NCBI GenBank assembly: GCA_963833425.1
Contig: CAWHXP010000002.1
Coordinates: 160,001 to 224,000, forward strand
DNA length: 64,000 nt
Direction: 5' to 3'
Source: an uncultured Methanosarcinaceae archaeon
GTDB taxonomy: Archaea; Halobacteriota; Methanosarcinia; Methanosarcinales; Methanosarcinaceae
The position numbers and the translations under genes were made by a program. Of the stretch, positions 7,488 through 62,147 are shown piece after piece (within the stretch, counting starts at the first letter, position 1; every line of letters begins with the position of its first letter). Below the pieces are notes generated by a model. That model was not told the origin of the DNA. It worked only from the letters and a program-made list of their open reading frames with translations, and did not search any database.

Positions 7488-7705
7488 GTAACATGTACAT
7501 CTCAAGTCAGATAGTGGTCATATCATATAATGAATTCACTAAAAAATGTTTGAAACTATCATTAAATGTATCCTTCGGACTTTACGCTGGTTAACGTCCA
7601 AATAGGCGCATAAAAAATCAAACTATTGAAACATGCTGATTTTTACAAACTCATTTTTGCTTGAGTTTGCTCATCAGAAGCGTCAAGTGAATAATTCAAA
7701 TCCAT

Positions 7706-9421: not shown

Positions 9422-10477
9422 ATGAAAAAAGCGACATACTATAAAGCAAGTAGAAGGTTAGGCATCACTTTGTCGACCCTTTTAATACTTGTGAGTATCG
9501 CAGGTGAGGCACAACTTGCAGATATTGCAAACTCCGGCAGCAACAATATATCTGATTTAAATAAATCACTTGAAAATGACATAAAAATTCAGGACAAAGC
9601 AATTGAAATTAACCCTCAGAATTCAACGGCTTGGAGCAACAAAGGACTTGATTTAGGGCTATCAGGTAGATATGATGAAGCAATAAAAACATTTAATAAA
9701 ACAATTGAAATTAACTCGCAGAATTCAGATGTTTGGACCGGCGAGGGACTTGCTCTATATTATTTAAATAAATACGATGAAGCAATAACAGCTTACGACA
9801 AAGCAATTGAAATTAACTCTCAGAATTCAATAGCTTGGGATGGTAAAGGACTTGCTTTATATAAATTAAATAAATACGATGAAGCAATAAAAGCATTTGA
9901 CAAAGCAATTGAAATTAACTCACAGAATTCTATAGCTTGGGAAGGTAAAGGACTAGCTTTTAATAATTTAAACAAGCATGAAGAAGCAATAAAAGCATAT
10001 GATAAAGCAATTGAAATTAATCCACAGGATTCAAAAGCTTGGTCCAATAAAGGACACTCTCTCAATAACTTAAATAAATATGAAGAAGCAATGAAAGCAT
10101 ATGACAAAGCAATTGAAATTAATCCTTTTGATTCAATAGCATGGGAAGGTAAAGGACTAGCTCTTGATAACTTAAATAAGCATGAAGAAGCAATAAAAGC
10201 ATTTGACAAAGCAATTGAAATTAACCCACTGGATTCACTTACCTGGGCCTCTAAAGGAGATGCTCTAAATGATTTGAATAAATCCGATGAAGCAATAAAA
10301 GCATTTGATAAAGCAATTAAAATTAACCCACTGGATTCAATAGCATGGGAAGGTAAAGGACTTGCTTTTGATAACTTAAATAAGCGTGAAGAAGCTATAA
10401 AAGCGTACGACAAAGCAATTAAAATTAATCCGAGGTATTCAATGGCTTTGGAAGCTAAAAAAAAATTAGATAAATGA
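9422..10477 (+). CDS. TPR-repeat protein with N-terminal signal-peptide-like leader
   Basis: About 8 full 34-aa repeats (AWxGKGLALxxLNKYDEAIKAYDKAIEINP) and a hydrophobic N-terminus. Confidence 0.92.
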   Translation: MKKATYYKASRRLGITLSTLLILVSIAGEAQLADIANSGSNNISDLNKSLENDIKIQDKAIEINPQNSTAWSNKGLDLGLSGRYDEAIKTFNKTIEINSQNSDVWTGEGLALYYLNKYDEAITAYDKAIEINSQNSIAWDGKGLALYKLNKYDEAIKAFDKAIEINSQNSIAWEGKGLAFNNLNKHEEAIKAYDKAIEINPQDSKAWSNKGHSLNNLNKYEEAMKAYDKAIEINPFDSIAWEGKGLALDNLNKHEEAIKAFDKAIEINPLDSLTWASKGDALNDLNKSDEAIKAFDKAIKINPLDSIAWEGKGLAFDNLNKREEAIKAYDKAIKINPRYSMALEAKKKLDK

Positions 10478-15180: not shown

Positions 15181-16189
15181 ATTTTACCTTGGATAATTTG
15201 GAATAATATTTTATAAAAATGCTGCTTGAAGTCAGAGGATATTCAAAAGCTGTAACTATCCATCCTTGACGCCTAGATTAATAGCTACCTTTACTAAGAT
15301 TCATTGAGTAAATTTATGTAGGCTTATTTTTCTCCAATCGAATACCCTGCAGCAATCTGAGGGGATGTATACTTTCCCTAGAATCTTTATCAACTAGCCA
15401 ATTAATATTTTAACCGACTTTCTGCAAATGTACACGGATATATATTTGTTTGTCTATTTGTCCACAATGATTTATTGAAAATCCGATTGATTTTTAAGCT
15501 ACTGTCATATTGAGAAAAGATATGACATTTTTGGTACGTCTGCGGAAAATGGGATACGATTCTTTTAACTTTGAATTTTTGCAAGTTTATCAAACGATTT
15601 AACCTTAGAAGAAATGTATAATAAGTATTTTATTACAGTCAAATACTCACAGATTGTTGTGATGATGAAAACTTCCAAAAGAACCGTTATTAATTAACTG
15701 CATTATCATTTAAAACCTTTTTATGATATTTCATACAAAAAAAACCATATGATATCTAATTTCTTAGACTAATGGTTTACATATCTTAATTTCACCTACA
15801 GCAAAAGGTAATTGAGGATTAAATCAGCTATTTAACGACGGTTACCTTGAAAGTTGAATCTCTGCAGTAAGCCGCAGGATATTCGAATTAAATAAAAAAT
15901 AGCATTGTCATCCACAAATATACCGAATAGTTACAATAGGATATCACATAGCTTTTTAGGGAATATAATAACTTTTTTTAGACTATCAAAGACTGACTAT
16001 TTGAGACTGGTTTCGTACTCAATGATTATGTGGACAAAAACGTAGATAATTTTGACATTGATCACAAGCTTATCAACTACTGAGGCCTTTTAAAGAGCCC
16101 AGTTGGCATAAAATATCATATAAAATCAGCAAAAATTTTAAATAAAATAAAACCGTTCGAGAAAACTGCATATGAGAAAATAATTATTT

Positions 16190-16519
16190 GATGAAGTAAA
16201 AAAGAAACGGGTTATTTTTCTGGCAATCTTATTTGTAGTGATATTAGCAACTGTAACGGTGAGCGCATTCGAGTCAACAAATGCAAATTATTCTGTAAAA
16301 ATGATAAAGATTGCAGTGAGTACAATCAGGGATATCACAATGGATATTAGAAAGGATATCAAGATGGTTTTATTGATGTAAAAAATCGTCAAGGAGCACG
16401 CATATTTTCTATGAAATGTTTTACAGTATTCTTCTGGATACTATTGAGGACGCTCTAATGGCTACAGACTCGGATATAATCAGGGATATGCTAATGGGAA
16501 AAAACACGTCATTAATTAG
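16190..16519 (+). pseudogene. Decayed small secreted protein with GY-rich repeats
   Basis: KKKRVIFLAILFVVILATVTVSA leader, then frameshifted YNQGYHNGY*KGYQDG and NGYRLGYNQGYANG. Confidence 0.55.
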
Positions 16520-17148
16520 TATCAACGACAGTTAAGAATCCTCCATTTTTGGTGGTTTAAAATTTCCAAGTTCTTAATTCTTGAGAGAAGTTAGAGGATT
16601 GCAAATAATGCTGAAAATATAGAAATGGCTAGTGATACGAGATTTATATGCACAAGGCTTGAGCATTAATTGAATAAGTGAATTGCCCCTTTATTACAAG
16701 ATTGTGTTTTCAGCCCGAACTTGGGTATATATATGATCCTCACAGCAATTAATTTTCCAAGTTATGTAACTATTTAACTTGGATAAAACAACATCAATGG
16801 TCATCTTTATTGAGATCAATTGACAAATTTCAGTGAGCTGATTTTCTTTCATGTATCTTCGGTTAAGCGAGGAATCGTGCTAAATTACACTGATTTCCAC
16901 AAAAGTTAATTAAAAGTATTCATTGATATTACGCTGTGACAAGATGCCTATTTCAGTTTTAGTACTCAAATTTGTGACTAATTTTTGTTTCAATTTGAAA
17001 TTGATAGCATTAGAATTTATTAGATTTTACATATGTGTTTCTTACAATTTATATTTCATTTACAGAATAAATTGTTGAAAATTTGTATATTCTTATATAT
17101 AATAGAACGATTGAGTCAAGATAAGTATGGGGAGCTTGATCCTAGAAT

Positions 17149-17180
17149 ATGCATAGTTTTTGTATCAAAAACTTGTGCAT
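17149..17180. repeat. 31-bp palindromic site family copy (1-nt insertion in right arm)
   Basis: ATGCATAGTTTTT-GTATC-AAAAACTTGTGCAT. Confidence 0.75.
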
Positions 17181-17481
17181 TTACTCTTCACCCAAAATCG
17201 AGAAAATTGTTATCTAAAATAGAGAATGTAAACAGTTTTTACTAAAACATATATTACAACTTAAAAATAAAAATGTTACTTTTAAACCCCTTATGGGGGA
17301 AAACCCATCAAAAATTCTCTATAGAATGATTTCTTGATATTAGTCATTTTGCAGAAAAATCAACACATAGACAATTATCATTGCTGTATAATCTTTGTTA
17401 ATAGTAGAAAATTCGCGAAATTGATCAAAACAATTTTAATAATAAAATGTTCATATAGATAATTGGCAATTTATATAACAT

Positions 17482-18126
17482 ATGTTAAAAGCAGTTATTT
17501 TTGATGTTGACGGAGTTCTTGTAGACTCCATGCGCTTTCATGCGGATGCTTGGAAGACTGTTTTTTATGAAGTTGGTATTAATATTACTAGGGAAGATAT
17601 TTATGAGCTAGAAGGCTCAAACGAGAGAGCGATAATTAAAACAATTTTTGAAAAAGATGGAAAAAAACCTGAACCCTGGCATTTCGAGTATTTGGTTAAT
17701 AAGAAACGTGAAGTATTTGAGTTTGATCAGATAAAACCATTTAAAAATATTCAAGATTGCCTCAAGAAGTTAAAAAGGTATTTCAATCTCGCTGCAGTTT
17801 CCGGGTCAAGCCGCAAAGTGGTTGAAAAAGTTATGAATACGTTTTTTTCAGGTTTTTTTGAAGTTATTATCACCGGAGACGATTTGGAGCGGGGAAAACC
17901 TAACCCAGCTCCCTTCCTTAAAGCCCTTGCAAAACTTGACATTACTAAAAATGAATGCATTGTAATTGAGAATTCACCTTTGGGTATCACTGCCGCTAAA
18001 AGAGCTGAAATTTATTGTGTTGCGGTCGCAAGCACACTTGGACCTGATAAATTACAACATGCAGATCTTGTGTTCAGAGATCACACTGCCCTTTTTGACT
18101 TTCTGAAAAAATTTATCCAAAAATAG
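17482..18126 (+). CDS. HAD-superfamily phosphatase (beta-phosphoglucomutase-like)
   Basis: FDVDGVLVDS motif I, SGS motif II, KPNP motif III, ENSPLG motif IV. Confidence 0.92.
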   Translation: MLKAVIFDVDGVLVDSMRFHADAWKTVFYEVGINITREDIYELEGSNERAIIKTIFEKDGKKPEPWHFEYLVNKKREVFEFDQIKPFKNIQDCLKKLKRYFNLAAVSGSSRKVVEKVMNTFFSGFFEVIITGDDLERGKPNPAPFLKALAKLDITKNECIVIENSPLGITAAKRAEIYCVAVASTLGPDKLQHADLVFRDHTALFDFLKKFIQK

Positions 18127-18610
18127 ATTCTTAAGTTTCAGAATTATTTTCTACATTTCTTCCTAAAAGATAAACCTCGCAGAAAGTGAGATATTAGAGC
18201 AAATATGTGACTTTTCTGGATAAACATCAACTCGTTATTGATGGACCACCAAATTTTTTGAACAAAAATATTTAACCAAGATTTGACAGAATCATAAATG
18301 TCAGAATATATAAATTGGCTTTATGTTTCTATTTTGTTCATATCCACTCTCTTCAGATGTACACAAAAATGCCATATAACATCTCAATATGATAGTAGCT
18401 TAAAAATTAAACTGATTTAAATAAATTAGTGAGCAAATAGGCAAACAACTTCTACATCTGTGTACATCTATGGAAAATGAAAGTATAGCTATATTCGGTC
18501 AGATTTCATTTACCAAAAAAAAAATATACATAAAAAATATGTAAAATCTGAAAAGGTTCAAGATTCGGAAAATCACAAAACGTATAAAATGAAACTAGAA
18601 GGTTCTAACT

Positions 18611-19885
18611 ATGGCCGAGATAAAAATTGACAGGTCTCTCTCATATATTGAAGGTACACAGCGAGTGTATGATGAAACTACAACCTTGGAAAATACAAAA
18701 GATAAGATAAAAAAGATAGGTGTTACCCGAATTGCAGACATTACAAACCTGGATAGGTTAGGAATCCCTATTTTTTCGGCAATCCGCCCAAGTGCCGCTC
18801 AGGGAGCGATCAGTATATACTCAGGCAAGGGTTCGACTGAGCAGAGAGCTCGGATTTCGACTATAATGGAGAGTTTTGAGCGCTGTCTAGCAGAAAAACC
18901 GGGCCTGAATGAAAACATCGCAGAAGACATTTCCGCCCCATCTCTAGTCGAATCCTATGCTAAAGCCATCGAAAACTTCAATGTACTGGATCCAAAAACC
19001 CTCCTTCTGCCTCAGCCCTATATTCCCCAATCCCTACTTGAATGGGTGAAAGCTTACGATTTAATAAATGAGGAAGAAGTTTTCGTAAGCGCAAATGCGG
19101 TTTACCATCCATACGACGCACCAGGTCAATGTCAGAAACTTTTCCTGAGTAATACCAATGGGCTAGCATCTGGGAATGTAATTGAAGAAGCTATCCTGCA
19201 TGGAATGCTTGAGGTCATAGAAAGAGATGCAATTAGTATAGCTCAGTTTACCCGCAACCTTGGGAAAGAAATATTGCTGACTAAAGAAGATGGATATCTC
19301 TACGAGTTTGCCAGAAAGTTCAAAGACGCGGAAATAGAATTGAAGATCTGGCTTGTTCCCACAGAAACCGGAATTCCAACAGTGATTGCAGTAACCGACG
19401 ACTTAAAATTGAAAGATCCCGCTCTTCTAGTAATGGGAGCAGGCTCCCACCTAAAACCTGAAACTGCGGTTGTAAGGGCCATAACTGAAGCTGCTCAATC
19501 GAGGGTGGTTCAGATCCAGGGAGCAAGGGAGGATACGGATAGAGAAGGTTTTATTAGAGGTATAGGGTACGATCGAATGAAACGCTTGAACTCTTTCTGG
19601 TTCGAAGATGGAGAAAAAGTTTCCCTTTCTGAAGTGCAAGATCTATCCAGAAAAAGTCCTGCAGAAAACATCGACTTGATACTCGACAAGCTCCGGGATC
19701 TTGCTGAAAAAGTGCTAGTAGTGGACCTCTCAAGGAAAGAAGTTGGAGTTCCGGTTGTTAGAGTAATTATCCCTGGCTTTGAGCTTTTCACTATTGATCG
19801 TGACAGAAAGGGAAAAAGAATGGCTTCAGGGCAGAAAAAAAATTTTTTTAGGGACAGAAATGATAAGCCATGGAAAAGACTATGA
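18611..19885 (+). CDS. ycaO: YcaO-family McrA-glycine thioamidation protein (methanogenesis marker 1)
   Basis: SGKG, MESFER, SNTNGLASGN, EVIERD, EAAQSR and PVVRVIIPG motifs; overlaps tfuA. Confidence 0.93.
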   Translation: MAEIKIDRSLSYIEGTQRVYDETTTLENTKDKIKKIGVTRIADITNLDRLGIPIFSAIRPSAAQGAISIYSGKGSTEQRARISTIMESFERCLAEKPGLNENIAEDISAPSLVESYAKAIENFNVLDPKTLLLPQPYIPQSLLEWVKAYDLINEEEVFVSANAVYHPYDAPGQCQKLFLSNTNGLASGNVIEEAILHGMLEVIERDAISIAQFTRNLGKEILLTKEDGYLYEFARKFKDAEIELKIWLVPTETGIPTVIAVTDDLKLKDPALLVMGAGSHLKPETAVVRAITEAAQSRVVQIQGAREDTDREGFIRGIGYDRMKRLNSFWFEDGEKVSLSEVQDLSRKSPAENIDLILDKLRDLAEKVLVVDLSRKEVGVPVVRVIIPGFELFTIDRDRKGKRMASGQKKNFFRDRNDKPWKRL

Positions 19886-20541
19886 AATCAAGAGCTGTAA
19901 TTTTTACAGGCAACAGCATCAGCCACGAGGATGCAAAAAAAATATTGAGGGTAAATTACCAACCTCCTGTATGCAGATTTCAGCTTGAAATATTCGTCCA
20001 GAAAGGATATAATATCATAGGGATCATAGACGGAATTTTTTTTGACAGGGCTGCAGTAGGACACAGGGAGATTATATCCGCCCTCAATGCAGGAGTAAAA
20101 GTTATCGGAGGCTCCAGTATGGGAGCCCTCCGAGCCTCTGAACTAGATACCTACGGGATGATAGGAATAGGAAAAGTTTACGAATGTTACAGAGACGGGG
20201 TATTTGAATCAGATGATGAGATAGCAGTTAGTACTAATCCTGATACTTTCGAGCCCATTTCCGTGCCTCTGGTCAACATAAGAGAAACCTTGAAAGTCGC
20301 TGTGGCTTCTGGAATTCTAAGTAAAAAAGAGCATAATGATCTCCTGGAGCTTGCGGTTAACACATATTACCCGGACAGAAGCTATCTTGGACTTATAAAA
20401 GAAGGAACAAAAAGAGGCCTGGTCCCGGAAGAAAAGAGAAAATCAATTCTAGATTTTTGTATCGTCAGAGAAATTGACGTGAAAAAGGAAGATGCAATCC
20501 TCGTGCTTGAAACAGTGAAAAAGCTGATAGAAGATACCTGA
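19870..20541 (+). CDS. tfuA: TfuA-related McrA thioamidation protein
   Basis: IIDGIFF, VGHREI, GGSSMGALRASEL, DDEIAV and SVPLVNIR motifs; true start may be the second Met. Confidence 0.93.
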   Translation: MEKTMKSRAVIFTGNSISHEDAKKILRVNYQPPVCRFQLEIFVQKGYNIIGIIDGIFFDRAAVGHREIISALNAGVKVIGGSSMGALRASELDTYGMIGIGKVYECYRDGVFESDDEIAVSTNPDTFEPISVPLVNIRETLKVAVASGILSKKEHNDLLELAVNTYYPDRSYLGLIKEGTKRGLVPEEKRKSILDFCIVREIDVKKEDAILVLETVKKLIEDT

Positions 20542-20787
20542 TGATTAAGATTTCTTTAAAATAGCATTATTGACTCTCAAAAACTATTTTTCAATGCATT
20601 GTTTTATTTTAGTTTAGCGATTCAGTTTCAAATTTTCTTCATGATTTAATAGCTTTTTTCAACGCTTTAATATTAGAGTTTGATAATGTAAAGGTTCAAA
20701 GCGTGACAAGTCAGTTGGAGATAAACTTACTGCAATTGCTTTTTTAGTCCTTTTCTTCACTATAAAAAAGAGATTTTGTCTATAACG

Positions 20788-20818
20788 GCACAGAGGTTTT
20801 GTGATAAAATCTATGTAT
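20788..20818. repeat. 31-bp palindromic site family copy
   Basis: GCACAGAGGTTTT-GTGAT-AAAATCTATGTAT. Confidence 0.7.
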
Positions 20819-21695
20819 TTTATCAGTTTCAGCCAAAATAGTAGGGGCATTTTTATCTAAATTTAGGATAAGTACATATATTTTACAAAAATAACTGCAT
20901 TATTAACCGACTTTCCACAGATCCCCTTTTGATTTTAACAATCTTTCTGTTATCGCTCTTTATGAAAATCACCTTTGCTACTCAAACATGGGTTTTTGAA
21001 ATGTCCAACAACTTTCAACCCTTCTACTTCATTGAAAAGTTTTGACTTCCATTCCCCAAAATTTGAAGTAGAATAATTCTTTACATTTGTTCAATAACCC
21101 AGGAACATGGCCCTAAATTTAAAGATTCTTACTTTAAAAAAATTGTGTTGATAACAGCTCTTATCAGACCTTTAAAAGTTTGATTTTAAAACATTCTATG
21201 AGAAAGTAATTTTTATTCAGAAATTATTTTTTATTGAGTTAATTTAAAGTAATAATATACGAAATAGTACACTGTAGCTACCGAAAATCAACAAAAAATT
21301 AGGGATTATTGAAAAAGTCTATAGCAACTAAATATATATGCAATTTATAATTTTTGAGTCAAAAATGAGTAGATGGGTAGGAAGATAAAAAATTTTGTGT
21401 TATACCTAATAATAGTTGATATGATATCAAGATCTGGCGGTGCTACAATAGTAAAAGCCAAAGATTGAGGGATAATATGTGGGGTGGAGAGGACGAAAGA
21501 ATTTTAGACAAAATTCAAGATTCACTTAACAAATATGGAAATTCGTGAGTAGTCAGTGATACAAGCATGTCTTTGCTCCCACATACATTTCTTAATTTTT
21601 TTATTCTAATCGTTTAGGTCGTGTATTAATTTAAGAACGAATGTTTCTAAAAGGATTTCAGCTACTTGAAATTGGAAATTTAGGAGAATCTAGAT

Positions 21696-22235
21696 ATGAA
21701 AAAGCATATATTTCAAAAAATAAACAGAAAAATAGCTATTCTGTTGTCAGCCTTCTTTGTAGTTTCATTGACAGCAGTATCAATAGGCTCATCTTCTACA
21801 ACTCAATCAGTAACAAGTTTTGTTGATCCATATCAATATAAGTTGACAGGCCATGGCATAAACGTGATATATACCCCTATGGGTCCAGGTGCTGTACCAA
21901 ATTTAATCTATAAAGATAGAGTTGGAACAAAACATTTCATTGGTAAAAATATTACCATCGTTAGCGTAGAGAACCTTGGAACTGTAGTTGAAGTTACTCT
22001 TGATAGCAGATTGGTGGGAGTTGGCTGGTCTAAAACATCCTTCGCTTTTATATTGCCGGTATTCAATCACGAAGATCTAAATAGAACTAGAACCCCAATA
22101 CCGATCCATACAATAGGTATTAAAACGAATTACAGGGAGGGGGGTGCAACTCTTCCAGTCCACCAAATTGGGACGTCGATTGACACATACAACTTAAAAG
22201 GTACGGCATCTAAACCTCGGATTAACCCGCTTTAA
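21696..22235 (+). CDS. Secreted hypothetical protein (signal peptide plus beta-rich domain)
   Basis: 179-aa ORF, upstream AGGAG, leader RKIAILLSAFFVVSLTAVS. Confidence 0.75.
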   Translation: MKKHIFQKINRKIAILLSAFFVVSLTAVSIGSSSTTQSVTSFVDPYQYKLTGHGINVIYTPMGPGAVPNLIYKDRVGTKHFIGKNITIVSVENLGTVVEVTLDSRLVGVGWSKTSFAFILPVFNHEDLNRTRTPIPIHTIGIKTNYREGGATLPVHQIGTSIDTYNLKGTASKPRINPL

Positions 22236-22494
22236 ACATCGGGTTGATCATCTCACTAACTACAAAAACAATATTTTATGGTAGTTAACTTCATGTTGAT
22301 AGTTGGAATCACAATGCATAATTTAAAAGGGTTAGTCATCTAATTTCCAGGGCAATAATGATATTCTTTAAGGTAATCTATATTGCCCTATTTCTTTTTG
22401 CGTCTTCAACAGCACTTATTACTCGGGCCTTCGTTGAAATTAATGGGAATCAGTAGTTTTGCTGACAAATATTATATTTAGATTGTTCTCACTG

Positions 22495-22525
22495 ATGCAT
22501 AGGTTTTGACACAAAAACTGCGCAT
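22495..22525. repeat. 31-bp palindromic site family copy
   Basis: ATGCATAGGTTTT-GACAC-AAAAACTGCGCAT. Confidence 0.85.
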
Positions 22526-22715
22526 TAAAAGGTTGTACTTAAGCATATTGATCACTAATTCTCAAATTTTGGGAATATTGAATGTATCGAATCTATGACT
22601 TTTTCGTATTTTTATAGAATATTACGCGCATGCTTCCTGATCTATTAGAAAAGTCAAATTAATCACAATTTTTATAGAAATTTATTTCAATCCTTTTGCA
22701 GTTAAGTGATCTCAT

Positions 22716-23573
22716 ATGACCGAGAAAAAAATTGATGAATCTTCACTCAAAAACAAAGGTTTTCTGTCTCAGAGACAAGAAAATATGTTTTCAATGCGGC
22801 TTAAAGTTGTAGGTGGAATGGTAAATGCCAATAAACTACGGGCAATTGCGGATGCTGCAGAGAAATACGGCTCTGGTTACATCCATTTAACTTCAAGGCA
22901 ACAGATTGAAGTTCCATTTGTCAAACTTGAAGATGCGGAAAAAGCGAGTTCTGAGCTTGAAATGCAGGGGATTTTCGGAGGTTCTTCTGGGAAAAGAGTA
23001 CGGGCAATTGTTGCTTGTCATGGGAACACTGTCTGTAAATATGGATTAATTGACTGCCAGAAACTTGCTTCCAAGATCGATGAGAAATATTTCGGAGAAT
23101 CTGTCCCTAAAAAACTCAAGATTGCGATCACAGGCTGCCCTTCTGCCTGTGTAAAACCCCAAGATAATGATTTTGGAATTATGGGTGTTACAAAACCTGA
23201 AATTTTCGAAGAGGATTGTATTGGTTGTGGGCTCTGTGAAAAAGCTTGTAAAATGGAAGCAGTAACAATCAAAGATGAAAAAGTAAGGATTAACAGAGAG
23301 AAGTGCGTTCTTTGCGGAGCTTGTATTACAGCTTGTCGGAAAGATGCATTGAGAGCGGGAAAAATTGGATATACGATTTTTGTTGGAGGTAGTATGGGAC
23401 GCAAGCCAAGGCACGGAATAAAATTTATTGAACTTGTGGATGAGGAGCAGCTTTTTTCAATCCTGAAAAAAACTATTGATTATTACAGAAAAGAGAGTCT
23501 TGACGGAGAAAGGGTAGGAGAACTTTTTGACAGGCTTGGAATTGAAAAATATAGGAAAGAAATTCTTTCCTAA
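22716..23573 (+). CDS. Siroheme sulfite/nitrite reductase-like protein (Dsr-LP/AsrC-like) with 2x[4Fe-4S] ferredoxin insert
   Basis: HLTSRQ, CHGNTVC (Cx5C), GCPSAC (Cx3C) and two CxxCxxCxxxC motifs. Confidence 0.9.
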   Translation: MTEKKIDESSLKNKGFLSQRQENMFSMRLKVVGGMVNANKLRAIADAAEKYGSGYIHLTSRQQIEVPFVKLEDAEKASSELEMQGIFGGSSGKRVRAIVACHGNTVCKYGLIDCQKLASKIDEKYFGESVPKKLKIAITGCPSACVKPQDNDFGIMGVTKPEIFEEDCIGCGLCEKACKMEAVTIKDEKVRINREKCVLCGACITACRKDALRAGKIGYTIFVGGSMGRKPRHGIKFIELVDEEQLFSILKKTIDYYRKESLDGERVGELFDRLGIEKYRKEILS

Positions 23574-23646
23574 AAATATCCGAAAATTTATGTATTTAAT
23601 TAACTATAATAAAATCTATCTGGCTAGTATATAATTAAATCAGATA

Positions 23647-23677
23647 ATTTATAGCTTCTTTGATAAAATCTATGGAA
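23647..23677. repeat. 31-bp palindromic site family copy (degenerate)
   Basis: ATTTATAGCTTCT-TTGAT-AAAATCTATGGAA. Confidence 0.5.
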
Positions 23678-23769
23678 AGGATTGACTATATCTGGTATCA
23701 AGATTATAATGTATGGAATCCACATCTGAAGCAGTGAGTACCTTACATTATAATCGTAAGAATGAGATC

Positions 23770-23800
23770 ATACATATGCTTTATCACAAAAACTGTGCAT
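23770..23800. repeat. 31-bp palindromic site family copy
   Basis: ATACATATGCTTT-ATCAC-AAAAACTGTGCAT. Confidence 0.75.
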
Positions 23801-24247
23801 CAATATAAAAAAACAATTTCTTTTTCGTTGTGAAAAAAACACAGAGTCATTCATAATTTACAGATTTGTAGGTACATTTTCGTGAGAGTTGAGTTGGCTT
23901 TAAAACTTTAATATTTTTTCAAGAAAAAGGACTTTAAAATCAGAGACTTGCCAAAAAATTCTCAGATGGAAATAATGTGATCTTGAACATAATTTTCGAA
24001 TAAGGATGTTAGAGATCATATGAGCTTACATACTATCAGATGAAAGTTCAATATATTGAAGGATAAAAATAAATAAAAATTAAGTAACTATTCAATCTAC
24101 AAATAGAATTTATTTAGTCTATTTAGATAAAGTTTCTTCGTTATAGTACCAAGCTATGTAATTATAGAAATTAATTTCATTTGTTTTGATGTATGCTTTC
24201 ATATTAATCTCTTTGGAAATTTAAGATAAGTACTTACTAACGATTCT

Positions 24248-24823
24248 TTAGATTTTAATAGGAGTACTTACTAACAATTTTTTAGCCAAGTCTACCTTGT
24301 ATTCAACGGGCTCCTGGCTTAATGGCTCTGGCTCAACATGCAATACCTTTAATGTGGATATGTCGATTATATTCGGGTTCATTGCAGCTGTTTTGAATGC
24401 TATTTTTTCAAGATCTTCATCTGTTTTAGACTTGGCTCCAAAATAATCATGGATATGTACAACTTTTCCATTGCTGTCATAAAGTACACACCTTTTATCT
24501 ATCGTCGTAGCAGTAGGATTCCAAGCAAAATCAGCACGCAATACACCTCTGATCGTACAAGTCCCAGAACCTGATGGGTGAGCATACATGAAATAGGTTA
24601 TTTCAGTTGCATTAGAGATCTCAGCTGCACTCGCATTTATCTGTTTATCGACCCCAGCATCCACGACACTTGCGACTCCTACACCCGAAGTTCCCCATCC
24701 ATCTAAACCAGTCATATACGCCTCTGCAAACACATGTACACCTGATGTGTCTCCAGAATAAGTGTGAGTCCAGGCGTGGTAATTATTAGTTATCGTGGCG
24801 GGAAAAATCCATAGATTATCCAT
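24248..24823 (-). CDS. Hypothetical protein (191 aa)
   Basis: ATG preceded by GAGGA on the minus strand; protein-like composition; no family recognised. Confidence 0.75.
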   Translation of the reverse strand: MDNLWIFPATITNNYHAWTHTYSGDTSGVHVFAEAYMTGLDGWGTSGVGVASVVDAGVDKQINASAAEISNATEITYFMYAHPSGSGTCTIRGVLRADFAWNPTATTIDKRCVLYDSNGKVVHIHDYFGAKSKTDEDLEKIAFKTAAMNPNIIDISTLKVLHVEPEPLSQEPVEYKVDLAKKLLVSTPIKI

Positions 24824-25150
24824 ATAAGTGTCCTCCTATATACTTTTAGTATTCATAATTGTACTATTATATTATGTTATATTTTTATTTAAATATTTTA
24901 AATCTTTAGATATGTATATTATATTGGTTGTTTTTTATGTAACTTGAATGGCTAAAATAAAACATTTACAACATTTAATATTAAGTTATCTATCAAAAAA
25001 ATAATTTTCAAATGAAAAATAATTCTATATTAAAAATAATTTTATATGAAATTTTTGTAATAAAAAAATTTAGCAAAATACCCACTATCTTTTTTGTTTG
25101 GCTAAATGCTTGTTTTTCCATTTGCTTAGACTCCAAAATGTTGTTTAATT

Positions 25151-25540
25151 TTATTGCGGATGCTCTAGATAATATAACGCCTGCAATGCTGGTTTGTTAT
25201 ACGGTTTAAGTTTTAGTGAATTTTTGTAATCAAAGATTGCTGCTGCTTTATCGCCTTTAATTTCGTCAAAGACTCCTTTTGCATTCCAACCAAAGAAATT
25301 GTTTGGATCAAGCATCAAGCCTTTATCTACATAATTTTCTGCTTCATCTTTTTTACCTTGATTCATTAGGGTTCAATAAAAGTGCATGGTCAATTGCTTC
25401 ACTAGCTTCATTCATCTTAAATTCACCAGCTAGAGCATTTACTTTATAATATCACGCGTTAGCATCTTTCGGATCTAGATTAATTGCTTTATTAAAAATT
25501 AATATGAAGTCATCGTTTTGTTTGGCGTTAAACAGATCTT
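25151..25540 (-). pseudogene. Truncated TPR protein
   Basis: Manual translation FNKAINLDPKDANA*YYKVNAL...AIDHALLLNP, then a frameshift into the 71-aa ORF (GLMLDPNNFFGWNAKG). Confidence 0.7.
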
Positions 25541-25569
25541 GCAAATGTTTTCACACAAAACCTATGTAT
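25539..25569. repeat. 31-bp palindromic site family copy
   Basis: TTGCAAATGTTTT-CACAC-AAAACCTATGTAT. Confidence 0.7.
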
Positions 25570-26130
25570 TTTTTAGATCACTTCAATTACATCAGAAGTA
25601 TGTAAGTTCTATTCAAGATACCCTTTCTTAATTACGCTCTGCTCTTCACGAACTTAGCGTTACATCTTTTGAGTACCAGTTAGTACCGTCCATCCAAGTT
25701 CGTAGGCATGATTATTGTCCCCAAAATAATATATCCTAAGTAAATTATTTTTTAGAATTGTTGATAAAAGTGCACTTTCAGGCTTTGATGGTTGACTATT
25801 TGCATCTATTGGTCTTGGAGATTTTATCACATGTTTCACCTTGCTATCGTATTTTTTTGTTGTTACTTTTAAAATACATAATTTTTTCCTGAATTATTTA
25901 AAATTAATTGCACAAAAATTAGTTTATAATTAAAATTAGCTTTCTGATGAAATTTTTTAAGACCACTAAATAATCAAATACTAATGAAGTCATATTACTA
26001 GTTTCTAAATAAGCTTATTTCAGCGTGAAACGTTGTAAAAATCAACTGCGATTTGATATTAATCACATTATTTAATTATTATAAAATAGATAATGTCTAG
26101 TCAATAGTTTTACAAGAAAGAAGAAATTTT

Positions 26131-26180
26131 GGTTCCGTTGCAAAAATAATTTTTCTGCAGTGTGATACTATAAATTTTAT
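26131..26180. mobile_element. Solo IS6-type end / MITE fragment
   Basis: GGTTCCGTTGCAAAAATAATTTTTCTGCA...ACTATAAATTTTA matches the reverse complement of the 45097-45146 MITE end. Confidence 0.7.
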
Positions 26181-26568
26181 TTTTTTTGAAGGAGTTAATA
26201 TTGAAGAATCTGAACTTAGAGCAGCTTACTATTTAAAATTTGAACAGCTTTCTAAAGTGAAGACATGATCCTTTCATTTATCGCGAAAATTTAGTTCTCT
26301 ATCAACTAACTAGGATGAAATTACCATATTTGAAAGATATTCTCTGCGGCTGTATACCTATATTTTGCAAAATCTTTCCTTTTTTTGCATTTCTAGCGCT
26401 TTTTGTTTTTTCATAAGTTCTTTTAATGTTGGTGGGACTATATACCCATTCTCAAGGTTTTTAATATCCGCAATGTACATGGGCTTTTTTATATAGCCAT
26501 TATTATTTGTATATACCTATTTTTTCTGCTTTTTGCCACTACAAAAAATAGGACTTATAGTTTTGCTT

Positions 26569-26599
26569 ATATGGAAATTTTCATACAATTCATGTGCAT
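26569..26599. repeat. 31-bp palindromic site family copy (degenerate)
   Basis: ATATGGAAATTTT-CATAC-AATTCATGTGCAT. Confidence 0.45.
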
Positions 26600-26681
26600 C
26601 TTAGGGTTAAGATAATTCAAATATTTGGACAAAAATAGAAATCAGTATTAAGATCAATAGTCTCAATATGTTTCTAGATTT

Positions 26682-27176
26682 TTAATCCATAAATTCTCGA
26701 AGAAGGCACTCGATTTTAGAGTCCAGATCTCTAGCAATAACGAGAGCTTCAGGGTTTCCGTATGGAGCCAGAAAACTGGCTATCTTGTCATACGACAAAT
26801 GCACACCATCTGGCCGCTCATCGACCAGAATTGTAACTGGAGCGTAAGATCCAGCATCGGGAATATGCTTTACCATTTCTTTCATGATGAGCGGATTGCC
26901 GATCAAAAAACGCATGACTTTCGGAGTGTTGAGCCCGTTTTCCTTACGCAAAATAGCGCCTAGATCGAATTTCATGAACATCATCAGCCCCGTTCTACCC
27001 AGACTCCTATGAATTACATTTTTCAGTTCAGCAAAGGTAAGTGCGCACTGAGTTGCTTCCATGAATTCGACCATATCTGTGTGCCCAACAGCCGCTTCTA
27101 GGGCTGCCACGATCACTTCGAATGGCTTGGAAGATATCACGCTGAATCGATCGATCTGGACTTTTTTGATAGTCAT
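26682..27176 (-). CDS. DUF302-domain protein
   Basis: Likely start MTIKKV; IGNPLIM...DAGSYAPVTILVDE...LSYD...ARDLD pattern. Confidence 0.8.
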   Translation of the reverse strand: MTIKKVQIDRFSVISSKPFEVIVAALEAAVGHTDMVEFMEATQCALTFAELKNVIHRSLGRTGLMMFMKFDLGAILRKENGLNTPKVMRFLIGNPLIMKEMVKHIPDAGSYAPVTILVDERPDGVHLSYDKIASFLAPYGNPEALVIARDLDSKIECLLREFMD

Positions 27177-27359
27177 GTTTTCTTTTTCTCCGTAAAACCA
27201 TTTATATATTAGATTCCATTGCAAAAAATTAAAAGAAGATTCACCGAAATAAGTGGCAGTTTAGGAATATATATAATGAATATTTAACAAATATATAATT
27301 CCTTATCTCGAGGCTTCGTAGAATTTAGGAGCTTTTTTACTGTTTTCTGAGAAAATATT

Positions 27360-27390
27360 ATGCAGAGATTATAATGTTAAATCTGTGCAT
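27360..27390. repeat. 31-bp palindromic site family copy
   Basis: ATGCAGAGATTAT-AATGT-TAAATCTGTGCAT. Confidence 0.8.
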
Positions 27391-27464
27391 AATTTGAACA
27401 GAAAATCCACAAAGGAAAAATCATGGATAAATTAGAATTCTCATTGGCATATTGTTATGCCTAA

Positions 27465-28421
27465 CTATTTGACAACTGCATATGCAAAGTGCTCATTTTC
27501 TTGTGTTTGATATTCATCAGTAAGTCCTTTGAAATAACGTTCTTTGATGTCTTCTGGCCTTAAATTTTCTTGGAGACTAAATCCTAAACTTGCTAGCTCA
27601 TCTCCTAAAATTGACGGATTTAAGCCAGTAATCATCGGTTCGCCTATATTTCTTAAATACTCCAACGTTTTTTTCATTCGTGGAGACGATTTCTCAGGGA
27701 TAAAAGCATCGGTATCGAGATAATCAAAAACAATAGTACTATCAGTGGGAGCAATTATTGTGATTGAGTGAAATACTGTAAATATTTCATCACGGGTCAA
27801 ATAAGGGGTAACACCAAGCCAATTAAAGAAGGTTTTAACTTTTTGGTCATAAGAAGATGAGCTAGTTAGTGCTGTTATTAGGCTTTCCTTCGTGAGATCT
27901 ATTGGAATAAAATGTAATTTTGCTGGATGTTTCCATCCCAACTCAGCAATGCGATGGAGCTTAAATTTTTGTGTAGCTGGGTGATCAACCTCAAACACTT
28001 CCAACTCTTCCATCATTTCAGGTTGTCGGAATGCAAATGTATCCATTCCTGCTCCAAGAATCACATACTGCTTTACTCCTTTTTTGATTTCATTTTTTAA
28101 GGCATCTTCAGCATATCGTGCACGGCTATTGAAAAAGCCTTCCAATTTACTGGTTGCTTGTCTTAATAACTCTGGAGTAATTGTTTGCTCAGATTGCAAT
28201 GCAGTATGAGGAAAATCATTCAACGGTAGATCATAGATCATATTTTGTTCAATTAAATGTTGTTCAATTAGTGCCCTTTTTTCCTCGGGTATCAACTCAT
28301 AGGCCAGAAAGTCGTCAAAGATTTTTTGAGTTGCATGTATGGAATGATAGGCACGCATGTAGGCTACCGTCATTGCAGTAAAGCTTGCTTGATTATCTTT
28401 CACTTTTATTGTCTCCTTCAT
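27465..28421 (-). CDS. Class I SAM-dependent methyltransferase (LCM / TIGR00027-like)
   Basis: TAMTVAYMRA, QYVILGAGMDTFAFR, FEVDHPATQ and WLGVTPYL motifs. Confidence 0.9.
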   Translation of the reverse strand: MKETIKVKDNQASFTAMTVAYMRAYHSIHATQKIFDDFLAYELIPEEKRALIEQHLIEQNMIYDLPLNDFPHTALQSEQTITPELLRQATSKLEGFFNSRARYAEDALKNEIKKGVKQYVILGAGMDTFAFRQPEMMEELEVFEVDHPATQKFKLHRIAELGWKHPAKLHFIPIDLTKESLITALTSSSSYDQKVKTFFNWLGVTPYLTRDEIFTVFHSITIIAPTDSTIVFDYLDTDAFIPEKSSPRMKKTLEYLRNIGEPMITGLNPSILGDELASLGFSLQENLRPEDIKERYFKGLTDEYQTQENEHFAYAVVK

Positions 28422-28537
28422 TTAACCATCTATTTTTAATGTAACCTCTCCAAAAAAACAATATCCAGAAAAAAATTATAACGTAAGAAAGTGAATAATG
28501 TTTTGCAGAACAGATCACAAAACTTTTCGAATGGGCT

Positions 28538-28765
28538 CTAAAAAAGTTCAATAAACTCTTCAGGTGTCAAGCCAGACTGCCTGATTATTGACTGCAAAGT
28601 TCCAACAGGAATTTCATTATAGTCAGGGATGATAACGATACGTGTTTCTTCCGATGTTTTCTTTTTCATTTTTATATGGCTGCCCTTTTGTGAAACCACC
28701 TTAAATCCTTGGCTATTGAGACCTTTTATAATCTCATGTGCTGACAGTATGGGAAGTTTTGTCAT
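28538..28765 (-). CDS. hicA: HicA-family toxin
   Basis: LPILSAHEII...GF...QKGSHIKM...GTLQSIIRQSGL; likely start MTKLP. Confidence 0.88.
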   Translation of the reverse strand: MTKLPILSAHEIIKGLNSQGFKVVSQKGSHIKMKKKTSEETRIVIIPDYNEIPVGTLQSIIRQSGLTPEEFIELF

Positions 28766-28976
28766 GGGAGACCTCAATTATTGTGGTAAGAATCGAGCCT
28801 GCAGCAGGGATTTTAACATCTTCATCTTCAAGATAGAGTTCTATAGCCTCTTTAAGATTATCAATTGTTTTTTCAATAGTTTCCCCCTGGCTTGCCACGT
28901 CAAGTTCTGGACACCATGATACGTACCATTCCCCTTCTTTATGGATTACTGCTGAAAACTTATAGGTCTCTTGCAT
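28734..28976 (-). CDS. hicB: HicB-family antitoxin
   Basis: YVSWCPELDVASQGETIEKTIDNLKEAIELYLED; lies upstream of and overlaps hicA. Confidence 0.88.
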   Translation of the reverse strand: MQETYKFSAVIHKEGEWYVSWCPELDVASQGETIEKTIDNLKEAIELYLEDEDVKIPAAGSILTTIIEVSHDKTSHTVST

Positions 28977-29078
28977 ATATGAAAAAAGGTTGTATGCGCT
29001 ATAAAGATTTTCTCAAATATCATTTATTTTGAGAAAGTAATCATATCAGCGCTCATGGTTTACAAAACTGATATTTGA

Positions 29079-29109
29079 ATGCACAGATTTTTCTATAAAA
29101 CCTGTGCAT
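29079..29109. repeat. 31-bp palindromic site family copy (near-perfect)
   Basis: ATGCACAGATTTT-TCTAT-AAAACCTGTGCAT. Confidence 0.88.
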
Positions 29110-29488
29110 TAATGATGATAAAAAACAGAAACTTTGTCAGCATAATAATTGAATCTGCATCATACTTTTTGCAGTGAAATAAAAAATAACCCACATATGA
29201 CACATTTAAATCTTGAGAAGAACCTGATATCGATGAATTCCTCTGTATCTGGTTCCCTCAAGAAAGTAATGAGTTCTCGATCAGCCCACAAGATTCTTCT
29301 TAATGTATTGATAGGATAGCAAAACTATATCATTAATTGAACTGGCAATTGATTGCAATTAATTCAAAACCCAGAAAATAATAAAAAAATGTTTTATTTT
29401 TATCATTGATTGTTTTGAATGAGTATAGAAAAAATTTGGAGACCAGAAAATAAAAAAGTCTCTGGCTTACTGCTGTCTATGATTGGCA

Positions 29489-30688: not shown

Positions 30689-31361
30689 AATAAATCACTC
30701 CTTCTCTGCCACAATGACGAGTAAGAGCTATCGAAAAACGTTCCATAACTGAAAGTTGATACACGCAGGGATGTTTGATCAATTTGTGTAGATTTCATCT
30801 TTTTGTCTCCTGTTATGTAACCATTCAGCTTAAAGAATACAACATCAATAACCATCTTTTATTAAATTCTCTTGACAAATTTCAATGAATCCGTTTTTGT
30901 AACCGCTGGATATTGACTATGTTTTTTGTAAATTAAAAAACAATTTTGGATGTATACTATTTCAAAATTGATATTAATTAATTGTTTTCAGTAGGCTGAA
31001 CAGTTATGTTTGGTTTATGTTCCATTCCCTGTGAGCGCCTATTTATAATTTAGGAGTTGCACATTCTATAATCAAATTAAAGAATAGCAAAGCCTAGTGG
31101 AAATATAAACTTAGGAGTTCGATAAATATCTAGGCATGTCAGTGATTGGTCGAAAATCTTATGAATGAAAATATTTCTATAGAACTTATGACAAACCTCG
31201 TATTCTTCGAACAACGGGCACAAGACATGAAAGTACTTGAAAGTGCTTTCATACCAAAGTTTGGATATATTAATCTTTTATAAGATTAATAATTGACAAA
31301 CAATAGTCTTTTATTTAAAACCTTAGAATGATGTACAAATAAATATCTATATATTGTACAA

Positions 31362-32216
31362 GGTTCCGTTGCAAAAAATCCTTTCTACTGATACAATAGA
31401 ATAAAAAGAAAATCAAAGATAGTAATATGCTATCTAATTCCTTTAAATGGAAGCATTATGAAGGAGAAATTATCTTATTAAACGTAAGATGGCACCTAAA
31501 ATACCCATTGAGCTATAGAAATTTAAAGGAAATGATGATAGAAAGGGGAATTCAAGTTGATCACAGTACTATAATGAGATGGGTACATCAATATTCTCCT
31601 GAAATCGAACAAAAGATAAGGAGACATTTAAGACCAACTAATGATTCTTGGAGAGTGGACGAAACTTACTTCAAGGTAAAAGGAGAATGGAAATATCTGT
31701 ATCTTGCAGTTGATTCAACTGGAAACACAGTTGATTTTATGCTAAGTGAAAAACGAGATAGAAAAGCAGCAAAGAGATTCTTTAAGAAAGCTTTGAGTTC
31801 TAATCATAACCAAATTCCGAGAGTAATAACAGTTGATAAGAATCCAGCTTATCCATCTGCTATAGGTAAACTGAAAAATGATAAAATACTACCTAAAAAC
31901 GTAGGTATTCGACAAATCAAGTATTTGAATAACATTATAGAACAAGATCATAGATCTATAAAGCGAATCGTTAATCCAATGTTAGGATTTCAGTCTTTTT
32001 GTACAGCCATCAAGACTTTAAAAGGAATTGAAGCTATGAATATGATCAAAAAAGGACAAGTAAATGATCTAGATTACTCTATTTTTAATGAAGTCAAATA
32101 CATTAATAAATTGTTTGGTATAATTTTATAATGTTAGTACATTTTCCTTGAATATTTTGATTTTTATTTATTACTTATAGATTTACATATTTTTTTGAAT
32201 TTTTTGCAACGGAACC
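31362..32216 (+). mobile_element. IS6-family insertion sequence
   Basis: TIRs GGTTCCGTTGCAAAAAA / TTTTTTGCAACGGAACC; no target duplication seen. Confidence 0.93.
31427..32131 (+). CDS. IS6-family DDE transposase (intact ORF)
   Basis: SWRVDETY, TVDKNPAY and YLNNIIEQDHR motifs. Confidence 0.93.
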   Translation: MLSNSFKWKHYEGEIILLNVRWHLKYPLSYRNLKEMMIERGIQVDHSTIMRWVHQYSPEIEQKIRRHLRPTNDSWRVDETYFKVKGEWKYLYLAVDSTGNTVDFMLSEKRDRKAAKRFFKKALSSNHNQIPRVITVDKNPAYPSAIGKLKNDKILPKNVGIRQIKYLNNIIEQDHRSIKRIVNPMLGFQSFCTAIKTLKGIEAMNMIKKGQVNDLDYSIFNEVKYINKLFGIIL

Positions 32217-45727: not shown

Positions 45728-45760
45728 TATATAGGATAAAATTGATAATAAGTCAAATTG

Positions 45761-45791
45761 ATGCATAGGTTTTATAGCAAAATCTATGCAT
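45761..45791. repeat. 31-bp palindromic site family copy (near-perfect)
   Basis: ATGCATAGGTTTT-ATAGC-AAAATCTATGCAT. Confidence 0.88.
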
Positions 45792-49246: not shown

Positions 49247-49298
49247 TAGACCTGTGCATTTTCTCAACCGCACGGAGGATAATTCTGGCACTTAATTC
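49247..49298. repeat. Half palindromic site plus flank homologous to 45779-45830
   Basis: CCTGTGCATTTTCTCAACCGCACGGAG versus TCTATGCATTTTCTCAACCTCACGGAG. Confidence 0.6.
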
Positions 49299-62060: not shown

Positions 62061-62147
62061 ATATAATTTTTTTGTATCAAAATCTATGTGTTTTCTCATT
62101 TTTCAGCCGAAATCGCAAGGGAATTTTTATTTGAATTTGGGATAAAT
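62061..62147. repeat. Degenerate palindromic site plus about 55-bp flank homologous to 20806-20875
   Basis: TTTT-GTATC-AAAATCTATGTGTTTTCTCATTTTTCAGCCGAAATCGCAAGGGAATTTTTATTTGAATTTGGGATAA versus AAAATCTATGTATTTTATCAGTTTCAGCCAAAATAGTAGGGGCATTTTTATCTAAATTTAGGATAA. Confidence 0.65.

Follow-up and report, generated by a model that had tools for sequence, protein, structure and literature searches.

The window analysed here is a stretch of 64,000 nt of chromosomal DNA (35% G+C) from a Methanosarcinaceae archaeon, and the element in question is a 31-base palindrome that recurs in it. The palindrome has the consensus ATGCAYAGRTTTT-N5-AAAAYCTRTGCAT, that is, two inverted 13-nt arms around a spacer that is mostly 5 nt long (4-6). 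The initial annotation listed 12 copies and read them as candidate recombination sites that separate accessory genes. All 12 coordinates indeed contain the sequences as transcribed there. With up to three mismatches allowed, the consensus matches at 22495, 27360, 29079 and 45761, and it gave no match in 100 dinucleotide shuffles of the window. We also scored the copies with a weight matrix of the two arms, which was trained on related genomes and allowed spacers of 4-6 nt; the null consisted of ten shuffled windows, scanned with the 5-nt spacer only, in which the top score was 10.1. Eight copies of the window outscored every shuffle (16.1 to 42.0; Table 1), and seven of them are packed into 12 kb (17.1-29.1 kb). 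The four other listed copies (23647, 26569, 49247 and 62061) are decayed or half sites. The first of these is borderline; the palindrome scores of the remaining three are not above chance, and they are recognisable solely by a good right arm together with the similarity of their flanks to those of other copies.

The spacer had been described as fixed in length. It is mostly 5 nt, but the copy at 17149 fits only with 6 nt, or with a 1-nt insertion in the right arm, and spacers of 4 and 6 nt are also present in related loci, so that a fixed spacer is not strictly true. The intergenic position ascribed to the copies holds, as no strong site of the window lies inside a credible gene; the site at 45761 overlaps a 122-aa open reading frame (ORF) that has no Pfam match. 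A scan of the window against Rfam at gathering thresholds gave no match, a tRNA scan of the window found none, and there was no island of unusual composition at 17-30 kb, the G+C content being even throughout (32-40%).

The genes that lie between the sites had been named correctly wherever this could be checked: a sulfite/nitrite-reductase-type protein, a TPR remnant, DUF302, an LCM methyltransferase, HicA/HicB and a 2-hydroxyacid/formate-dehydrogenase-family protein. Two items of the list were not confirmed, namely the secreted nature of the 179-aa ORF at 21696-22235, for which there was no Pfam match, and the end of an IS6 element placed near 25.5-26.6 kb. The segment between 17149 and 20788 encodes the core methanogen genes HAD, YcaO and TfuA; the DNA between the sites is thus not only accessory.

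Occurrence in related genomes

An exact-match scan with TGCAYAGNTTTT-N5-AAAANCTRTGCA over 185,579 species genomes returned 51 loci, which we labelled L001 onward. Archaeal titles were attached to 44 of these (Methanosarcina, Methanosarcinaceae, Methanosarcinales or, in two cases, only Methanobacteriota). Two loci with bacterial labels, from metagenome-assembled genomes of Smithella (L009) and Patescibacteria (L017), carry the same flanking tails and are probably mis-binned; L017 additionally encodes the recombinase described below and IS6 repeats. Five other bacterial records (L007, L020, L021, L048 and L049) had neither a second site nor recurrent tails, and were treated as chance or unrelated matches. 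The motif is confined to Methanosarcinaceae. These five records and L026, a duplicate of L025, were excluded from the counts, which left 45 loci.

At least one further site lies within 5 kb in 24 of the 45 loci, with five sites in 10 kb in L002 and four each in L014 and L025; arrays like that of the window are therefore not unique. The species representatives searched do not include the genome of the window itself, for which the nearest match was L038, with 95.6% identity over 1 kb. The genes next to the sites in the related loci are diverse and include those for TBP, KaiC, SOD, aTrm56, SAH hydrolase and toxin-antitoxin pairs, as seen in a scan that covered 150 of the 357 predicted ORFs. In many loci the sites are dispersed among ordinary housekeeping genes and are not restricted to a single array.

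Nature of the site

For the statistics of position we used 90 sites, 82 in the loci and eight in the window. We found that 85 of them are intergenic, and that flanking genes point away from the site about as often as towards it (84 versus 82, with median distances of 302 and 240 nt). Distances to genes ranged from 104 to 1106 nt (10th-90th percentile), and the four possible arrangements of genes around a site were about equally frequent (23, 19, 18 and 16). The variable distances and the absence of an orientation bias are at odds with an operator at a fixed distance from a promoter, as well as with a terminator.

The variable positions of the arms (6/8 and 9/5) are complementary in 31 and 26 of 56 strong sites, respectively, which is about the level of chance. 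This lack of co-variation indicates that there is no selection for a hairpin in RNA or in single-stranded DNA, and suggests that the arms act as two independent half sites on duplex DNA that are probably bound by protein. The spacer, in agreement with the initial annotation, is both variable and asymmetric: 47 of 56 spacers of related sites fit NNNAY in exactly one orientation, the commonest being GCTAT (13 sites) and ACAAT (11 sites). The asymmetry of the spacer gives the site a direction.

A tyrosine recombinase next to the palindrome

In four loci (L017, L001, L027 and L032) a gene for a protein of ~200 aa starts about 100 nt from the palindrome, in continuation of one type of flanking tail (family A, see below). 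Remnants of the same gene are present in L003, L015 and L019, and a copy truncated by an insertion sequence (IS) in L013. The protein is a tyrosine recombinase (PF00589, 33.9 bits versus a cut-off of 27.1). Linkage of the sites to an integrase gene, which had been envisaged at the outset, was thus found: this recombinase family adjoins the same palindrome in related chromosomes and plasmids. The proposal that XerA drives the system fared worse, since the linked enzyme reaches 19.5 bits with the XerA model, whose cut-off is 220, and the site is present in many copies and not as a single dif.

Residues R55, K142-x-x-R145, H168 and Y177 are invariant in 25 sequences of the recombinase, which, judged from these residues and from the predicted fold, looks active. 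The best Foldseek matches of its AlphaFold model (predicted local distance difference test 89.9) were the integron integrase 2a3v, as the top match, archaeal XerA (5hxy/4a8e), XerH and the Tn1549 integrase, with TM-scores of about 0.6; the model also matches the catalytic domain of lambda integrase. The recombinase is, as modelled, a catalytic domain only, with nothing left for a separate N-terminal DNA-binding domain. Searches by sequence against solved structures, with the protein alone and as a profile, gave no meaningful match. There are 223 close homologues of 200-235 aa, some of them named integrases of M. mazei and M. barkeri, and a further search gave 350 clusters at 50% identity, so that the family is a large one. 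A search of a phage collection found no homologue.

Because the chromosomal loci had been chosen by the motif, we searched plasmids with the protein alone. This motif-free search returned five Methanosarcina plasmids with one homologue each. The layout upstream of the gene is identical in all nine intact genes, palindrome 1 being followed by palindrome 2 and, 37-90 nt further, by the gene. The spacing between the starts of the two palindromes is 83-85 bp in seven of the nine; in the two M. barkeri plasmids palindrome 2 was placed by eye. Palindrome 2 has a spacer of 3-4 nt and the consensus ATACAYAGNTTT-AAAT-AAAAYCTRTGTAT. The plasmid of M. barkeri 227 (39.6 kb) contains exactly one canonical palindrome, which lies upstream of the recombinase gene. 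The recombinases of the Wiesmoor, Kolksee and M. vacuolata plasmids are 63-65% identical to the query, and these plasmids carry, at the same place, an altered palindrome, CATCAGGTTTT-N5-AAAACCTGACG. The altered form is single-copy on the Wiesmoor plasmid (32 kb) and on that from Kolksee (50 of 54 kb scanned). Site and enzyme, thus, change together on the plasmids, and no other observation speaks as strongly for the palindrome being the site of this enzyme.

In the window itself the initial annotation saw no recombinase, and this family is indeed absent from it by tblastn and by six-frame profile search; any activity there would therefore have to be provided in trans. The copies at 17149, 20788 and 62061, and perhaps that at 45761, retain a decayed palindrome 2 at +83, and look like recombinase-upstream modules from which the gene has been lost.

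Toxin-antitoxin genes accompany some of the sites. In L017, positions 264-1844 form a compact unit of site, recombinase, hicA, hicB and a second site, and in the window hicAB adjoins the site at 29079, with the LCM methyltransferase gene in the position of the recombinase; the two HicB proteins share only 40% identity. We considered and rejected a composite transposon in L017, as the left flank of its site 264 is not a tail and two IS6-type repeats lie there. We also rejected a plasmid-chromosome link through the acyltransferase genes beside the sites, whose proteins are unrelated.

Mosaic boundaries at the sites

Twenty-six pairs of sites resemble each other on one side, with 68-99% identity over the 150 nt next to the site. 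On the opposite side, 25 of these pairs show only background similarity (52-63% identity), given that random pairs of flanks have a mean of 57.5% and reach 63% at the 95th percentile; the one remaining pair, L037/L039, is orthologous on both sides. Blocks of homology of 0.4-1.6 kb with 82-90% identity start or stop at the edge of the palindrome, and contain genes such as those for an acyltransferase, a histidine kinase and a methyltransferase. The alignments run through the conserved palindrome and then break off. Within 400 nt of the centre of a site there are 44 alignment ends; 25 of these fall 14-44 nt beyond the centre, and the 40 nt that precede it contain none, in a count to which each alignment contributes ends in both loci and which includes within-genome duplicates. 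When only different genomes were compared, 15 of 103 internal ends of long alignments lay within 25 nt of a site versus 2.0 expected; the other 88 fell at IS ends, at gene ends or elsewhere. The spacer tends to follow the shared flank, being identical in 4 of 19 comparable pairs versus 3.2% of random ones, with a mean of 1.7 versus 3.0 mismatches. Such one-sided similarity is also seen for sites of the window. The left flank of 22495 is common to L038 at 80%, but the right flank is not, and the homology of the 23770 tail to L028 begins at the palindrome.

One site resembles a product of recombination. Site 7678 of L043 joins an L012-type left flank to an L023-type left flank (sites L012 5000 and L023 5000; same contig, CAVTET010000001.1). 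Recombination between two inverted sites would give such a junction and would leave, as its reciprocal product, a site whose two tails are alike.

We examined the far ends of the shared blocks and saw no second scoring site there; at the far end of the acyltransferase block that is common to L002, L040 and L022 there is at most a very decayed trace of a palindrome. Among the shared blocks we did not find any segment that has a site at each end and recurs in a second context. On this comparison, shared blocks with one palindromic end look more like the outcome of site-to-site rearrangement than like excisable single-gene cassettes.

Flanking tails

Of 186 arm-plus-flank halves, 126 belong to families of conserved non-coding tails of ~50-110 nt. 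The largest family, CD, has 55 members, extends 70-110 nt outward from the arm and stops sharply at the motif TTTACAGAACTTTCAGTACACTGCC; a short form, 'E', arrives at the same motif after about 45 nt. Family A has 13 members, and three more in the window, and contains a second, weaker palindrome. A site may carry one family on its left and another on its right, and the combinations are free (A with CD, A with E, CD with F4). At nine sites, none of which is in the window, CD is present on both sides, so that these resemble the centre of a ~250-nt miniature inverted-repeat transposable element (MITE). One full symmetric copy (L033 4877-5138) has inverted terminal motifs; no target-site duplication is visible at it, and we found no empty sites of the tail elements. 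In the window the right tail of 45761 is also present at the half site at 49229 (near 49247), and the left tail of 20788 is CD-like by eye only, not having been assigned to the CD family in the clustering.

The distal motif TTTACAGAACTTTCAGTACACTGCC occurs 32 times in the window and the loci, mostly within ~100 nt outward of a palindrome, and about ten copies have no scoring site nearby. It forms the end of the tail, for example, at 23855-23882 of the window, at 2673-2697 of L003 and at 1861-1885 of L017, and conservation ends right after it. We rejected a promoter function for the motif, since genes downstream of it are opposed to it in orientation as often as they are in line with it (15 cases each). 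It is loosely like two arm-like half sites in direct order and might, speculatively, be an accessory binding site. The orientation of the spacer relative to the tail family is only weakly biased (type A, 8 on the 5′ side and 3 on the 3′ side; CD, 14 versus 22), but is consistent among the five type-A copies compared.

Interpretation

We propose that the palindromes are the core sites of a Methanosarcinaceae-restricted site-specific recombination system that uses a minimal tyrosine recombinase, a reading to which we assign a probability of roughly 0.6. Each 13-bp arm would be bound by one subunit of the ~200-aa, catalytic-domain-only recombinase, and strands would be cleaved and exchanged within the short asymmetric spacer, mostly 5 bp long. 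The gene of the recombinase would have its own module, made up of the core palindrome, palindrome 2 at a distance of 83-85 bp and the gene, with palindrome 2 probably serving as an accessory or autoregulatory site. Methanosarcina plasmids would carry one such module, and some chromosomes many extra sites without the gene. Inversion, deletion or excision, and integration between sites would have repeatedly swapped the DNA on one side, which would be why the sites now lie between unrelated genes. We infer that this recombinase, rather than general recombination, made the junctions. The recombination sites of the initial annotation thus stand in so far as the palindrome behaves as a double-stranded, directional site of a tyrosine recombinase, but the capture of gene cassettes that went with them is no more than possible.

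Several observations weigh against our proposal. Exact mosaic boundaries do coincide with the palindromes, but the mismatches in the arms split only weakly between the near and the far arm (37 versus 47 in 25 pairs), so that the crossover cannot be placed within the 5-bp spacer. Most shared blocks have only one end at a site. The pairs of sites form about 11 related groups and are not all independent, and the pairwise and alignment-end counts mix genomes with within-genome duplicates, the 15 of 103 ends being the exception. Only the five plasmids give a linkage that is unbiased by selection for the motif, and the window has neither a gene nor a remnant of this recombinase family. Finally, most halves of sites belong to tail families, and nine sites have the same family on both sides; a MITE family that transposes would give the same picture, and the rearrangements would then be possible by-products.

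Such a family is a serious rival, though we consider it unlikely. According to this explanation, MITE-like non-coding repeats of ~100-260 nt have spread by transposition, the palindrome is their conserved centre or end, the sharp boundaries come from insertions or from general recombination on the repeats, and the recombinase module is a member or the source of the family. The large tail families with their sharp distal end at TTTACAGAACTTTCAGTACACTGCC, the sites with one tail on both sides and the full copy in L033 with its inverted terminal motifs are all as expected from it, and Methanosarcina has been reported to be rich in MITEs, in the available part of a census (PMC11602168). The complete copy in L033, however, has no target-site duplication, the tail families combine freely on the two sides, and no site of the window has the same tail on both. 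Moreover, identity falls from about 90% to background at the palindrome and not within the tails, the shared blocks span whole genes, and the pairing of the altered palindrome with the more divergent plasmid recombinases is left unexplained. The two explanations may also be combined: small repeats may seed the sites, and the recombinase then mix their flanks, which would explain the combinations of tail families.

A true cassette system, in which the segments between sites are excised as circles and captured elsewhere in the manner of integrons or of pdif modules, appears improbable to us. It would account for the arrays in other loci and for the small toxin-antitoxin cargo, such as the site-bounded unit of L017 and the hicAB genes beside 29079. 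It is also consistent with the site that lies 175-250 nt upstream of the LCM methyltransferase gene in L010 and L040 too, and with the shared orientation, by the NNNAY rule, of most window spacers between 22.5 and 29.1 kb. Against it, no segment with sites at both ends was found in two contexts, and core genes are flanked as well (YcaO-TfuA in the window; TBP, KaiC and SOD in related loci). Neighbouring spacers of the window differ, which tyrosine recombinases usually tolerate poorly, and there is neither a platform of the integron type nor a pdif-like alternation of orientation.

A perfect intergenic palindrome would also fit a transcription-factor operator, which the initial annotation gave as an alternative, a terminator of transcription or an RNA hairpin, and palindrome 2, near the start codon of the recombinase, may well be an operator for that one gene, but for the sites at large we regard this as very improbable in view of their gene orientations and distances, of arms without co-variation, of the absence of an Rfam match and of the breaks of synteny at the sites.

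Relation to known systems

Tyrosine recombinases that act on a simple site with inverted arms are a known type of system, to which we assign ours; it stands out by its minimal size and by its multiplication across a chromosome. Cre-loxP (13-8-13) and FLP-FRT are simple tyrosine-recombinase sites that lie next to their gene on plasmids. The palindrome resembles them in its two inverted 13-bp arms and short asymmetric spacer. As with Cre-loxP, there is one site near the recombinase gene on three of the five plasmids, which were scanned (nearly) in full, and no other partner gene was found. In contrast to Cre-loxP, the spacer is 5 bp (4-6), the enzyme has ~200 aa without an N-terminal DNA-binding domain, and chromosomes carry many copies of the site. 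The internal resolution site of Tn4430, on which TnpI acts, combines core inverted repeats with accessory repeats beside the gene. Our modules similarly join a core palindrome to another recombinase-type motif, at a constant distance of 83-85 bp and directly upstream of the gene; unlike Tn4430, they have no transposon context, and their additional motif is palindromic in its own right, with a spacer of 3-4 nt.

The pdif modules of Acinetobacter, which the initial annotation invoked, are gene modules on plasmids flanked by XerC/XerD sites. In both cases short sites with inverted arms separate unrelated genes, toxin-antitoxin pairs among them; sites may lack a recombinase gene next to them, and the mosaic structure breaks off at the sites. 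Here, however, the recombinase is a dedicated one and not the host Xer, the sites are chromosomal and dispersed, and orientations do not alternate. Modules of the pdif type were not found, in that we saw no shared block with sites at both ends, and the spacers at 22.5-29.1 kb of the window point mostly in one direction.

Integron attC sites act as folded single strands, whereas the arms of our palindrome do not co-vary. An integron is likewise not apparent in the window, as a six-frame profile search found no integrase there. The likeness to integrons is that many palindromic sites lie between genes and go with a tyrosine recombinase, whose top structural match is the integron integrase 2a3v. 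The sites differ in being short near-perfect palindromes dispersed between housekeeping genes, without a platform that has a capture site and an array in one orientation, and the recombinase has 201 aa versus 313-320 aa for the chains in 2a3v. Integrons have been reported in Archaea, according to the portion of that report available to us (bioRxiv 10.1101/2022.02.06.479319; PMC9668308).

Two families of bacterial repeats also invite comparison. In REP/RAYT elements an HUH-type transposase acts on imperfect palindromes, which it recognises as hairpins in single-stranded DNA; the arms of our palindrome lack co-variation, and the gene linked to it encodes a tyrosine recombinase. The dRS3 repeats and intergenic mosaic elements of Neisseria consist of an inverted-repeat unit with blocks of repeats. 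The palindromes are like these in combining an inverted-repeat unit with freely combining repeat families of 50-150 nt, in being dispersed between genes and in their link to rearrangement; organism, sequence and enzyme class are different, and the likeness is one of description only.

Closer in taxonomy is SsrA of the M. acetivorans plasmid pC2A, described in the accessible text of PMC9569500 as a non-essential tyrosine recombinase that has chromosomal homologues in M. mazei and whose gene adjoins a perfect inverted repeat of 20 bp. Both are tyrosine recombinases on a Methanosarcina plasmid with an inverted repeat beside the gene. By that description, with which alone our system was compared, the repeat of SsrA comes after the gene and not before it (PMC9569500), and pC2A is not among our five plasmid matches.

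We found no published description of the palindrome or of its link to a recombinase in the literature searched, supplements aside and in so far as the articles were available. The site is not mentioned in the available parts of a review of archaeal tyrosine recombinases (PMC8371274), a classification of tyrosine recombinases (PMC8138268), the MITE census (PMC11602168), the pC2A shuttle-vector study (PMC9569500) and a review of Methanosarcina genetics (PMC3403347). If our proposal holds, it names the 31-bp site and the ~200-aa enzyme of an archaeal recombination system that had not been characterised, and both are small enough for direct testing in the genetically tractable Methanosarcina species. 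The system would explain, by a concrete mechanism, how Methanosarcina genomes became as scrambled as they are known to be and how DNA is exchanged between plasmids and chromosomes, and might yield a compact pair of recombinase and site for archaeal genetic tools. More generally, a plain-looking intergenic palindrome can be tied to an enzyme by comparing the site with its neighbouring gene across plasmids.

A bolder version, which we put forward tentatively and hold to be rather doubtful, is that dozens to hundreds of lox-like sites on some Methanosarcinaceae chromosomes, served in trans by the minimal, catalytic-domain-only recombinase, provide built-in inversion, excision, capture and exchange of gene-sized segments, including toxin-antitoxin pairs, between chromosome and plasmid. 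If true, this would be an archaeal counterpart, of independent origin, of pdif modules and integrons, and might be one reason why gene order is poor and intergenic regions are large in these genomes.

Further features of the window

The coordinates of the sites and of the elements associated with them are given in Table 1.

Table 1. Palindromic sites of the window and elements adjoining them; scores are those of the weight matrix.
Feature	Position	Strand	Remarks
Palindromic site	17149..17180		score 34.3; 6-nt spacing or 1-nt insertion in right arm; type-A (recombinase-upstream-type) tail on right
Decayed second palindrome	17232..17262		83 nt after start of 17149; spacing as upstream of recombinase genes
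Palindromic site	20788..20818		score 16.1; left arm degenerate, right arm good; type-A tail on right
Decayed second palindrome	20870..20900		82 nt after start of 20788; scores 0.4 as a 13-5-13 site
Palindromic site	22495..22525		score 36.1; CD-type tail on left
Borderline decayed site	23647..23677		score 10.3 versus null maximum of 10.1
Palindromic site	23770..23800		score 23.3; left arm degenerate
CD-type tail of 23770	23801..23882 (end approximate)	+	from family alignment; ends in degenerate copy of distal motif TTTACAGAACTTTCAGTACACTGCC
Palindromic site	25539..25569		score 20.9; left arm degenerate
Strongly decayed candidate site	26569..26599		score -3.0; retained only since left flank clusters with CD tails
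Palindromic site	27360..27390		score 24.8; 3 mismatches; between DUF302 and LCM methyltransferase genes
Perfect consensus site	29079..29109		score 42.0; CD-type tail on right (about 29110-29160)
Perfect consensus site	45761..45791		score 41.4; IS6-type terminal repeat 34 nt to left; family D3
Half site, right arm only	49247..49287	+	~40 nt of 45761-type tail; no left arm; score -1.3
Right arm with type-A tail	62061..62091		left arm lost; score -1.7; decayed second palindrome at about 62144

Besides YcaO-TfuA and the other genes already mentioned, the window encodes DUF1638, HMG-CoA reductase, two aminoacyl-tRNA synthetases, a thermosome subunit and two IS6-family (IS240-type) copies, at 6632-7497 (-) and 31360-32216 (+). 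Solo IS6-type terminal repeats, GGTTCCGTTGCAAAAA, are present at 44965-44980 and at about 45722-45737. Repeats of this type are unusually often close to palindromes: they abut the site on the M. barkeri 227 and MS plasmids, and lie 10 nt from it in L035, 34 nt at 45761 of the window, 36 nt in L015 and 47 nt in L008.

Two other non-coding repeats were noted. One, of ~200 nt at 22229-22470, is 76-88% identical to six loci of other genomes (L010, L023, L038, L039, L040 and L042) and leads into the palindrome in the window and in L038 alone. The other, of ~150 nt at 44986-45150, lies just inside an IS6-type end repeat, matches at least eight other loci and is possibly a MITE derived from IS6.

A gene for a sensor histidine kinase/response regulator at 60902-61960 is broken into three overlapping ORFs (receiver, HisKA_2 and HATPase) and is probably a frameshifted pseudogene; these ORFs end about 100 nt before the decayed site at 62061. 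Long stretches of the window are without an ORF of at least 90 aa (15200-17480, for example), and the coding density is low for an archaeon. Direct repeats in the window are dominated by a pentapeptide-repeat gene at 57620-58567 (15-nt period) and a TPR gene at 9422-10477 (102-nt period), and are unrelated to the palindromes.

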